A stretch of 12,594 nucleotides of DNA from Promethearchaeota archaeon (GTDB lineage: Archaea > Asgardarchaeota > Thorarchaeia > Thorarchaeales > Thorarchaeaceae), in contig JALVPN010000117.1 of NCBI GenBank assembly GCA_027031765.1, forward strand, positions 1 to 12,594, written 5' to 3'. Position 1 is the stretch's first letter. Every line of letters starts with the position of its first letter. Of this stretch, positions 2,462 through 5,069 are shown one piece after another. The notes below the pieces were generated by a model. It was given only the letters and a program-made list of their open reading frames with translations, was not told the DNA's origin and ran no database searches. Position numbers and translations under genes: made by a program.

Positions 2462-3241
2462 CTACTTCTCGGCCACGACGACCATTCGTTGCGAGTCGGC
2501 TGAGTACGGTGTCCTCGGGAGCTTGTTCTGCCCGTAGAGCTCCACCTTGTTGAACCCTGTGTCTGCAAGGAGCTCGCGGATCTCGTGTGCTGTGTACATC
2601 CTGATGTTGTTGTTCATCATCGCGTCCTCGTTCATCACAACAATGCGTGCGTTCTCAACATCGATGAAGGTCGCAGGTCTGCCCCTGAGAATGCCGGACG
2701 CGGCATCCAGGACATGTGCCTCGTTCAGCAGGTAGCCCCCTGCAACCTTGGTCCAGGTCTTGTGGAACCGTGGTAGGTTGTACGGGTTCATCAGGTCGAG
2801 CAGCAGTCGTCCACCAGCTCTCAGTGCATTGTATGCGCCCCGGAGCACAGCCATGTTCCCCTCATGGTCAAAGAAACCGAAGCTGTGGCTCAGGATCACC
2901 GCTGCATGGAACCTCTCATGGTAGTCCATCTCCCGCATGTCCCCGGTGTAGAAGTCCACTTCCACTCCCTCTTCCTGTGCACGCTGCATCCCAGCCCTCA
3001 CCAAGCTCTCTGCAAGGTCGAATGCGGTGGCCTTCAGCCCCGCCTTTGCGAACTCTATGCTGTGCACACCGGCACCGCAGGCAATGTCGAGGACCTCTCG
3101 GCCCGGTTCGAGACCAAGTGTGTCGATACAGAACTCCACGACCATGCGGTCGTACTGTTCAATCCCGGGGATGGAGTTGCGGTGCTTTATCCTGAACAGC
3201 TCGGCCCAGAACTCGTCCCAGCCAAGGGCAACTCTCTGCAT
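2462..3241 (-). CDS. Class I SAM-dependent methyltransferase
   Basis: 259 aa. Motif I VLDIACGAGVHS, acidic end of strand 2 (AFDLA), GDMR, and post-II LRAGGRLLLD. The substrate cannot be inferred. Confidence 0.9.
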   Translation of the reverse strand: MQRVALGWDEFWAELFRIKHRNSIPGIEQYDRMVVEFCIDTLGLEPGREVLDIACGAGVHSIEFAKAGLKATAFDLAESLVRAGMQRAQEEGVEVDFYTGDMREMDYHERFHAAVILSHSFGFFDHEGNMAVLRGAYNALRAGGRLLLDLMNPYNLPRFHKTWTKVAGGYLLNEAHVLDAASGILRGRPATFIDVENARIVVMNEDAMMNNNIRMYTAHEIRELLADTGFNKVELYGQNKLPRTPYSADSQRMVVVAEK

Positions 3242-3389
3242 GGCACTGTCCTCTCGTGCGCAACGATATGAAGCTTGTCATTATGTGTCCCGCCACTCCC
3301 ACCCGGCAGGTGTACGACCTAATCCCCCACCAAGACGTACTCGCATGCTCACTGGGCCACGCAGCCGTACCGGAAACGCAGAACGGGGT

Positions 3390-3487
3390 GGAGACGCTCT
3401 GACACCCTGTTGTTGAGATCTCCGCCGGGAGGTTTGGACTTCAACAGGAAACTCAGAGTGATGAGCATGACCAGTGCGAGCGTCTCC
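3390..3487 (-). ncRNA. Candidate ~98-nt structured non-coding RNA (unassigned family)
   Basis: A perfect 10-bp terminal inverted repeat (3390-3399/3478-3487) encloses further stems (3406-3412/3442-3448; 3418-3423/3428-3433). A minus-strand TTTATA box at 3517-3512 begins 30 nt upstream of G3487. Confidence 0.45.
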
Positions 3488-3509
3488 GGACTAATCATGT
3501 TCGGCCACG

Positions 3510-3525
3510 CCTATAAATGTATAGG
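3510..3525. promoter_or_regulatory. TATA box embedded in palindrome CCTATA-aatg-TATAGG
   Basis: 6-bp inverted repeat with a 4-nt spacer. It contains TATAAA (+) / TTTATA (-) in an AT-rich patch of the MTase-aspS divergent intergenic region. Confidence 0.55.
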
Positions 3526-3710
3526 TCATATGGTAAACAGTGAAGTCTCATGAAAAATCGTTAGTCCCGGTGGTGGTCGTGGCCCGGTCACTGTCATGGC
3601 ACGGTATCCATGCTCCTCGATGCGCCACCGTTCTCGTCCTCTCCACGGTGTCTGGGCCACAAGTCTCATAACCATGATGCCAATCGGCTCGGCAAGTGAG
3701 GCAGCGCAAG

Positions 3711-5069
3711 ATGGACTTCTATGAGAGGGCTGGTGTTGAGCCCATCGATGACGCACCGAGGACACACTACACCTCAGAGATTGTCCCAGCACTCACCGGC
3801 GCCGAGGTCGAGTTGATGGGCTGGGTGCACATACTCCGTGACAAGGGCCGCATCAAGTTCCTGGTCCTCAGGGACGAGCGGGGCACAGTGCAGGTCACCA
3901 TCCCGAAGAAGCGCGTCCCGGAGGAAGTGTTCGAGGTCTCCGGCACACTGCGTCCCGAGACCGTGGTCGCAGTCCATGGCACGGTCGTTGAGGCGCCCCA
4001 GGTCGAGCGTGGTGTCGAGGTGATACCGTCACGGCTACGGGTCCTGAACCGGTCGGAACCACTGCCCATCGATGTGGTGGAGGGCAAGGCCGGCATCGAC
4101 CTTGACACACGTCTCAACCACCGTATCCTCGACCTCAGGAAGCCGCGGGTGAACGCAGTCTTCAGGGTACAGCACTGTCTCGTCCGGTTCGCCCGCGAGT
4201 ACCTTGAGGAGAATGGTTTCGTCGAGGTCCACACACCCAAGATTGTTGCCGAGGCCACGGAGGGTGGCGCGAACCTCTTTGAGATAAAGTACTTTGAGCG
4301 CAAGGCGTTCCTGGCACAGAGCCCGCAGTTCTACAAGCAGCTCATGCTGCTCGCTGGCTTTGGACGTGTCTTTGAGGTGGCGCCGGTCTTCAGGGCCGAG
4401 AAACACAACACACGCCGTCATATCAATGAGTATACCTCCTTCGACCTGGAGATGGCATGGATACGTGGTGTGGAGGACGTGATGGCCATCGAGGAGGAGA
4501 TGCTGTGCCATGCGTTCTCCAAGACCCGTGAACATGCTGCTGCTGAGCTGGAGCTCCTCGGCGTGGAGCTTGTGACCCCCAGAATACCCTTCCCACGGGT
4601 CAAGTACGCAGGGGTCATTGACATGCTCGCCTCCGAGGGCAAGGAGCTTGAGCTGACCGACGACCTCGACCCTGAGGCTGAACGCATGCTGGCAGAACTG
4701 TTCCCGGAGCGCTTTGGCACCGATATGGTCTTCATAACCCACTACCCACTTGAGCTGCGTCCTGCCTACACGATGCCCAGCATGACCGACGAGGGCATGA
4801 CCGAGAGCTTCGACCTCACTTACAAGGGCATGGAGATCACCACTGGCGGACAGAGGATTCACCTGTACGACCTGCTCGTTGAACGGTTCCGTGCGAAGGG
4901 CTTCAACCCCGATGACTTTGCGTTCTACCTCGACCCGTTCAGGTACGGTGCTCCCCCACACGGTGGTCTGGGCCTTGGTGTCGAGAGGCTGACAATGCAG
5001 GTGCTTGGCATAGAGAACATCCGCGAGGCCACACTCCTGCCACGTGACCGCGACCGGCTGACGCCGTAG
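3711..5069 (+). CDS. aspS: Aspartyl-tRNA synthetase, archaeal type
   Basis: OB-fold N-terminus (RTHY...GWVHILRDKGRIKF), motif 1 (FVEVHTPKI), AQSPQFYKQ, motif 2 FRAEKHNTRRHINE, GGQRIH, motif 3 PPHGGLGLGVER and the C-terminal PRDRDRLTP. ATG 3711 is preferred over GTG 3696 because GTGAGG upstream looks like an RBS. Confidence 0.96.
   Translation: MDFYERAGVEPIDDAPRTHYTSEIVPALTGAEVELMGWVHILRDKGRIKFLVLRDERGTVQVTIPKKRVPEEVFEVSGTLRPETVVAVHGTVVEAPQVERGVEVIPSRLRVLNRSEPLPIDVVEGKAGIDLDTRLNHRILDLRKPRVNAVFRVQHCLVRFAREYLEENGFVEVHTPKIVAEATEGGANLFEIKYFERKAFLAQSPQFYKQLMLLAGFGRVFEVAPVFRAEKHNTRRHINEYTSFDLEMAWIRGVEDVMAIEEEMLCHAFSKTREHAAAELELLGVELVTPRIPFPRVKYAGVIDMLASEGKELELTDDLDPEAERMLAELFPERFGTDMVFITHYPLELRPAYTMPSMTDEGMTESFDLTYKGMEITTGGQRIHLYDLLVERFRAKGFNPDDFAFYLDPFRYGAPPHGGLGLGVERLTMQVLGIENIREATLLPRDRDRLTP

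Follow-up and report, generated by a model that had tools for sequence, protein, structure and literature searches.

Does the intergenic stretch upstream of a SAM-dependent methyltransferase gene in a Thorarchaeaceae genome encode a small RNA in its own right, or does it form a switchable leader for the gene that follows? The window analysed here is the whole 12,594-nt stretch of DNA that contains this locus. Both readings were put forward in an initial annotation, the first as a stand-alone small RNA with its own TATA box and paired ends, the second as a methyltransferase leader; the former is sustained by the comparisons described below, and the latter is not. To our knowledge, non-coding RNAs have hardly been explored in Asgard archaea, and full-text literature searches returned neither a description of structured small RNAs or riboswitches in Thorarchaeota nor an account of an RNA of this kind in Asgard archaea generally. 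The element is an uncatalogued, family-specific gene that is new to Rfam, and we consider it very probable that it is a real, independent RNA gene. The explanation that best accounts for the whole body of evidence, which we favour with reasonable but limited confidence, is a stand-alone small RNA specific to Thorarchaeaceae and most likely acting in trans via a C-rich loop.

The structured RNA gene lies on the minus strand, where the covariance-model match (models R1 and R2, with covariation on 29 and 79 sequences) extends over 3380–3491 and the paired core of the RNA spans 98 nt, from 3487 to 3390. The molecule is closed by a terminal helix, P1, in which the 5′ strand GGAGACGCUCGCAC (3474–3487) pairs with the region GUGUCAGAGCGUCUCC (3390–3403), an assignment based on the fold and on family covariation; within it, GGAGACGCTC (3487–3478) and GAGCGTCTCC (3399–3390) are perfectly complementary over 10 bp. 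Inside P1 are a short variable hairpin predicted by folding, P2 (3451–3466, of the form GCUCA-loop-UGAGU), and a longer arm, P3/P4 (3406–3448), whose P3 helix is formed by CCUGUUG (3448–3442) and CAACAGG (3412–3406) and encloses the conserved core CCUCCCGGCGGAGAU (3418–3432). This core includes CCUCCCGGC, which is identical in all 79 known copies and carries the loop CCUCCC. The 98-nt fold has a predicted energy of −37.2 kcal/mol, with a z-score of −2.96 relative to dinucleotide shuffles, and only one of 200 shuffles folded as well.

The promoter of the RNA (3510–3527, minus strand) consists of the TATA box TTTATAGG (3517–3510) preceded by the BRE-like element GACCTATACA. The minus-strand hexamer TTTATA occupies 3517–3512, with its first T 30 nt ahead of G3487, and the palindrome CCTATA-CATT-TATAGG (3525–3510) lies over the TATA box. 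These two features, the perfectly paired ends and the inner hairpin at 3406–3448 had been described from the sequence beforehand, and all are reproduced on re-reading it. Aligned promoter regions show that the palindrome is found in only part of the Thorarchaeaceae. On the 3′ side, P1 is followed by a pyrimidine-rich tract, ACCCCGUUCUGCGUU (3375–3389), which is a candidate termination zone and is weaker in the window copy than in relatives.

BLAST of the region against relatives returned one clear match only, in which the promoter word and three blocks of the RNA are retained and the methyltransferase gene follows. With nhmmer, 26 of 30 orthologue loci proved to have the element upstream of the methyltransferase in the same orientation, and a covariance model with a hand-set structure detected the RNA in 29 of 30 methyltransferase loci. 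A plain MAFFT alignment misaligned the 5′ half, and the four-pair structure that RNAalifold derived from it was discarded as meaningless. A second covariance model, built on the 29 loci found with the first, matched once in each of 79 of the 86 Thorarchaeaceae genomes, covering all 16 genera, and the RNA is present in each of the 23 genomes of high quality (completeness of 90% or more, contamination of 5% or less). Covariance-model searches found it in none of 124 genomes from 26 other families of the phylum, the sister family included. The window copy is among the most divergent and lowest-scoring members, at 45 bits compared with 57–114 for most.

A word scan of metagenomes added six more true copies, standing among chance matches and in the same genomic context (loci L136, L161, L173, L182, L199 and L202), whilst in viral contigs the 15-mer core word gave 75 chance matches, none of which fitted the covariance model. 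The 2.95-Mb assembly of the window contains the RNA sequence a single time, and it therefore does not represent a MITE; the one model match per genome across Thorarchaeaceae likewise speaks against a repeat. Two genomes contain additional partial copies: in contig G097:C21 (locus L022) the 3′ half of the RNA is repeated after a run of N, about 100 nt downstream of the first copy, and in G101:C249:1-55 a second partial match sits at the contig end. Both are most likely artefacts of scaffolding or strain mixture and no true duplications.

That the conserved entity is an RNA is strongly supported by covariation in homologous intergenic regions, a check that the initial annotation had proposed. 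When 79 distinct copies were aligned to the covariance model, standard pairs occupied 93.7% of the cells, and changes on both sides were seen in 22 of 28 pairs, compared with 10.8 in column shuffles, with none of 500 shuffles reaching 22. As a control, sliding the 3′ partners by one to three columns lowered pairing to 40–61%. Compensatory changes are found in all five pairs of P1a (GGAGA/UCUCC), where swaps of the whole helix occur, for example to GACAG/CUGUC, in all eight pairs of P1b, in six of the seven pairs of P3 and in three of the eight pairs of P4, whose sequence is nearly invariant. The 79-copy alignment was fitted to the model structure and is biased toward it; the whole-helix swaps are visible by eye in the unfitted sequences, independently of that alignment, and the 29-sequence set gives the same picture of covariation. 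Frequent G-U pairs place the RNA on the same strand as the methyltransferase.

The elements of the fold have evolved in different ways. P2, between P1b and P3, differs widely in sequence among genera and is absent from a few copies, and in 73 of the 79 copies this region forms a hairpin that folds better than shuffles. The most conserved part of the RNA is the P4 hairpin core GCGUCCCUCCCGGCGG, with the C-rich loop CCUCCCGGCG; the CCUCCC of this loop is invariant in the 79 copies and is predicted to be unpaired with a mean probability of 0.94.

Covariation also bears on the idea that the conservation reflects a function at the DNA level (promoter or regulator binding) or a small protein gene, with no RNA structure involved. 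In the window a 49-aa ORF with a hydrophobic N-terminus (3349–3498) overlaps the element, an in-frame 3-nt indel separates the window from genome G015, and the promoter region is conserved as well as the RNA. The start codons and reading frame are, however, not conserved among relatives: the two possible starts, ATG 3498 and ATG 3468 in the same frame, have both been altered, the median ORF with a start in the window's frame is 0 codons, the shortest open stretch is 8 codons and no frame is open across the copies. Compensatory changes of the extent described above and the many G-U pairs can be explained only by an RNA of this strand, and the DNA or protein explanation is accordingly given very little credence.

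Transcription of the RNA would proceed from its own strong TATA promoter and begin with the opening nucleotide of the terminal stem or slightly ahead of it. Every one of the 79 copies has a TATA-like hexamer that starts 28–33 nt ahead of the first paired base (29–31 nt in 75 of them), and tRNA genes in the same genome have TATA-like boxes at an equal distance from the mature 5′ end. At the other end, the 15 nt after P1 contain a mean of 7.4 T and 11.3 pyrimidines across the 79 copies, with a run of at least four T in 37. Oligo-T tracts stop archaeal RNA polymerase, and transcription would probably end in the T/C-rich tract right after the terminal stem. TATA geometry and the T/C-rich tail together predict a product of about 95–105 nt with its two ends paired; both termini, and the transcript itself, are deduced from such sequence features. 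A scan for bacterial-type promoters and terminators gave nothing, as expected for an archaeon.

A further conserved feature lies upstream of this promoter. In most loci a T-rich word (TTTTA or TTTA) is found approximately 48–55 nt upstream of the first paired base, about 20 nt upstream of the TATA box, and often within a short GC-flanked palindrome. It could terminate transcription of the upstream tRNA-Gln unit or serve as a second TATA box in divergent orientation.

In the window the same-strand neighbours of the RNA are the class I SAM-dependent methyltransferase (259 aa, 2462–3241, minus strand, Pfam Methyltransf_25/11) and EF-2 (3–2216), with the aspartyl-tRNA synthetase gene aspS as the divergent neighbour and ESCRT genes further along. 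The methyltransferase ATG, at 3241, is 149 nt past the 3′ end of the terminal stem, in practice the 150 nt given before. Across genera the usual order on one strand is tRNA-Gln(CUG), RNA, methyltransferase, EF-2 (loci L008–L036), with EF-2 85–93% identical across these loci, and the six metagenome contigs are arranged likewise; the window is an exception, with the divergent aspS in place of the upstream tRNA-Gln.

Such an arrangement would be compatible with a cis-acting leader, a riboswitch or a protein-binding attenuator controlling read-through into both the methyltransferase and the EF-2 gene; P1 and the U-rich tract would then terminate transcription conditionally. The RNA is always upstream of, and on the same strand as, these two genes, its highly conserved junction and loop nucleotides look aptamer-like, and in genome G014, where the methyltransferase is gone, it lies upstream of EF-2. 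The distance between the RNA and the methyltransferase ATG, however, lies anywhere between about 50 nt and about 4.5 kb, with a 267-aa opposite-strand ORF between them in G077 and two ORFs in G085, and there is one element per genome, where it might have been expected ahead of several genes of a pathway. The alternative fold that would make the leader switchable, pairing 3460–3453 with 3402–3395, does exist in the window (seven of eight pairs, with one A·C mismatch and six contiguous pairs) but is confined to it, as in the 79-sequence alignment the two segments are not complementary in any of the other 78 copies.

The methyltransferase moreover has a BRE/TATA-like element to itself, ATGACAAGCTTCATATC (3265–3281, minus strand). 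This conserved element, (A)TGACAAGCTTCATATC at 3281–3265, is located about 40 nt before the ATG in 30 of 30 loci, whatever the distance of the RNA and even where the RNA is far off, and judged by its sequence and position it is likely to be the methyltransferase's own promoter. The hexamers CATAAC, TTATCA and TCATAT are enriched 1.7–2.7-fold at −70 to −20 of ORFs in this genome, and the exact composite motif ACAANNTTYNTA is rare, with seven sites genome-wide; the composite is therefore no general promoter word, and only its TATA-like half is of the enriched type. Weighing these observations, we regard the leader as improbable.

The stand-alone gene draws its support from a TATA box at the proper distance in every copy, from the strong covariation and from three genomes in which the RNA is parted from the methyltransferase or that gene has been lost. 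The loss is seen in G014 (91% complete), where the methyltransferase has been deleted at the syntenic site and the RNA is kept with its promoter, now upstream of EF-2. At this locus (L075, G014:C1:101500-106500) the RNA lies at 2667–2772 on the minus strand, and tRNA-Gln, the RNA and its promoter, EF-2 and a degenerate element resembling the methyltransferase promoter are retained in a genus that has lost the methyltransferase.

The identity of the RNA was sought among known classes. The initial annotation had matched it to none of the tRNA, 5S, SRP, RNase P and SAM-I consensus sequences, and Rfam likewise gives no match at the gathering score in the window; even a permissive search of Rfam 15 (E up to 10) with the window copy and seven typical relatives returned noise only, at E-values of 0.9–5 and scores of 12–19 bits, as against thresholds of 42–65. 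ARAGORN finds no tRNA or tmRNA gene in the window. In size and outline the RNA resembles 5S rRNA and Y RNA: all are approximately 100–120 nt long, their 5′ and 3′ ends are joined in a closing helix, and they have another two arms as well as a U-rich 3′ tail. In contrast to 5S rRNA, the element does not match the Rfam 5S model (RF00001), and a canonical 5S gene is present elsewhere in all five genomes tested, that of the window included. A Y RNA was rejected in that Ro60/TROVE (PF05731) was not found in 41 Thorarchaeaceae genomes, in a search to which control genomes respond.

A box C/D or H/ACA guide was likewise rejected on inspection of the 79-sequence alignment, which shows neither a RUGAUGA/CUGA pair nor an ACA following P1, and in which the internal loop is one-sided; a weak match to sR38 is on the opposite strand and reaches 14 bits, compared with a threshold of 50. 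SECIS was dropped because the RNA has its own promoter and lies upstream of genes, not in a UTR, and because the methyltransferase has no in-frame stop.

What such an RNA might do is suggested by its loop. The 3′ end of 16S rRNA in this genome is GGAUCACCUCCU, and CCUCCC contains its anti-Shine-Dalgarno core, CCUCC. The genome uses GGAGG/GGTGA Shine-Dalgarno sites before ORFs, and GGAGG, GGTGA and AGGTG are enriched 2.3–2.5-fold at −20 to −3. Because the loop shares this core with the anti-Shine-Dalgarno end of 16S rRNA, the RNA is most likely trans-acting. The P3/P4 arm would present the unpaired CCUCCC loop, with P1a/P1b closing the molecule and P2 remaining short and variable; the loop would then pair with G-rich, Shine-Dalgarno-like sites on mRNAs and mask their ribosome-binding sites, or, alternatively, the hairpin would be presented to a protein partner. 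Rather tentatively, we put forward Shine-Dalgarno masking, by analogy with known regulators, as the possible mechanism.

Loop complements of at least 8 nt near ORF starts number 33, which is near the roughly 20 estimated for chance. In 86 genomes, 12-nt complements of the loop region outside the RNA gene occur at control rates only, and duplex energies with the 5′ regions of the methyltransferase and EF-2 and with tRNA-Gln are no better than those of shuffles. That P4 is conserved in sequence and not in pairing alone fits recognition by a protein or ligand at least as well as a seed. The window copy itself counts against the loop mechanism, since the 5′ half of its P4, GUCUGCGUC in the family, has diverged to GUCCAAA, with the result that the C-rich loop can pair with GGAG and is less well presented; its unpaired probability is 0.51, an outlier relative to the family mean, leaving the loop only half accessible. 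In two closed genomes, rRNA models returned a 23S fragment only and no match to 16S.

The obvious candidate for a protein partner is encoded next door, and the RNA may be a substrate, guide or regulator of the adjacent family-specific methyltransferase, the two making up one functional module; the enzyme might, for example, methylate the RNA, or the conserved hairpin might mimic the true RNA substrate and titrate the enzyme. Orthologues of the methyltransferase are single-copy, with 58–70% identity, in 79 of 86 Thorarchaeaceae genomes, the same number as the RNA, with which they co-occur, and neither was detected among the sampled genomes of the sister family or of the phylum's other families. 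The two are on the same strand and adjacent or near in every locus that has both, the six metagenome contigs included, the pair is intact in the window despite the replacement of the upstream tRNA-Gln by aspS, and the sequence-level conservation of the P4 stem suits recognition by a protein.

Against a module, G014 retains the RNA after deletion of the enzyme gene, and the adjacency may be inherited synteny, because tRNA-Gln and EF-2 are equally conserved neighbours. The best match of the methyltransferase outside Thorarchaeaceae is approximately 31% identical, its nearest relatives are generic small-molecule or unassigned class I enzymes (PDB, NCBIfam and Atlas), and no RNA-binding domain was detected in it. 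A functional module, the chief alternative to trans action through the loop, is on balance unlikely, and from the genomic context the methyltransferase is best described as a conserved neighbour and a candidate partner. The more specific proposal that the two form a lineage-specific ribonucleoprotein or an enzyme–substrate pair acting on translation is less likely again; in one form of it, a methylated RNA may use its anti-Shine-Dalgarno-like loop to compete with 16S rRNA for ribosome-binding sites, and such a pair, if real, would be a global translation regulator invented in the Asgard lineage.

For the preferred reading, a small RNA acting in trans through its loop, there are parallels in bacteria. 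In RsaE, unpaired UCCC motifs bind Shine-Dalgarno sites, and regulators of this Shine-Dalgarno-masking type are characteristically stable small RNAs whose C-rich loop is invariant and unpaired (PMC2790875). Like RsaE/RoxS of Firmicutes, the Thorarchaeaceae RNA is predicted to be stand-alone and about 100 nt long, is single-copy and conserved throughout its lineage, and has as its most conserved nucleotides a C-rich hairpin loop, predicted to be unpaired, that is complementary to the Shine-Dalgarno core. It has no sequence or covariance-model (Rfam) similarity to them, so the likeness would be one of mechanism and not of descent. It also differs in its archaeal host, in having a TATA promoter as opposed to sigma-type promoters, in possessing one C-rich loop where they have two or more, and in the pairing of its ends to close the molecule; pairing with mRNAs of the RsaE kind is a candidate activity deduced from the sequence of the loop.

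Among archaea, trans masking of ribosome-binding sites has been proposed for sRNA41 of Methanosarcina mazei (Buddeweg et al. 2018, as summarised in PMC5867862), also an intergenic small RNA. The two lineages are unrelated and homology between the RNAs is not to be expected, and whereas sRNA41 has experimentally supported targets, the ACDS operons, the mechanism of the Thorarchaeaceae RNA is putative.

The RNA nevertheless constitutes a clean case, single-copy, present in 16 of 16 sampled genera and with promoter, fold and invariant loop defined. It is ready for inclusion in RNA family databases and genome annotation, and offers a tangible subject for the first functional studies of RNA in the lineage. 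If the C-rich loop does mask ribosome-binding sites, this logic would have arisen independently in archaea near the eukaryotic stem, and if the RNA works with the methyltransferase, the two would be a new RNA–enzyme pair. The annotation of the locus itself loses a false small ORF and a false ‘riboswitch’.

Other features of the locus concern the divergent aspS gene. A sequence on the plus strand, ACAAGTCTCATAAC (3660–3673), resembles the methyltransferase element and is located approximately 38 nt before the likely aspS start, ATG 3711, which has the Shine-Dalgarno sequence GTGAGG at 3697–3702; the GTG at 3696 listed as the start probably lies too far upstream. On the opposite strand, an 88-aa ORF (3526–3792, minus strand) that lacks any Pfam match runs across the promoter and start of aspS, and is probably spurious.
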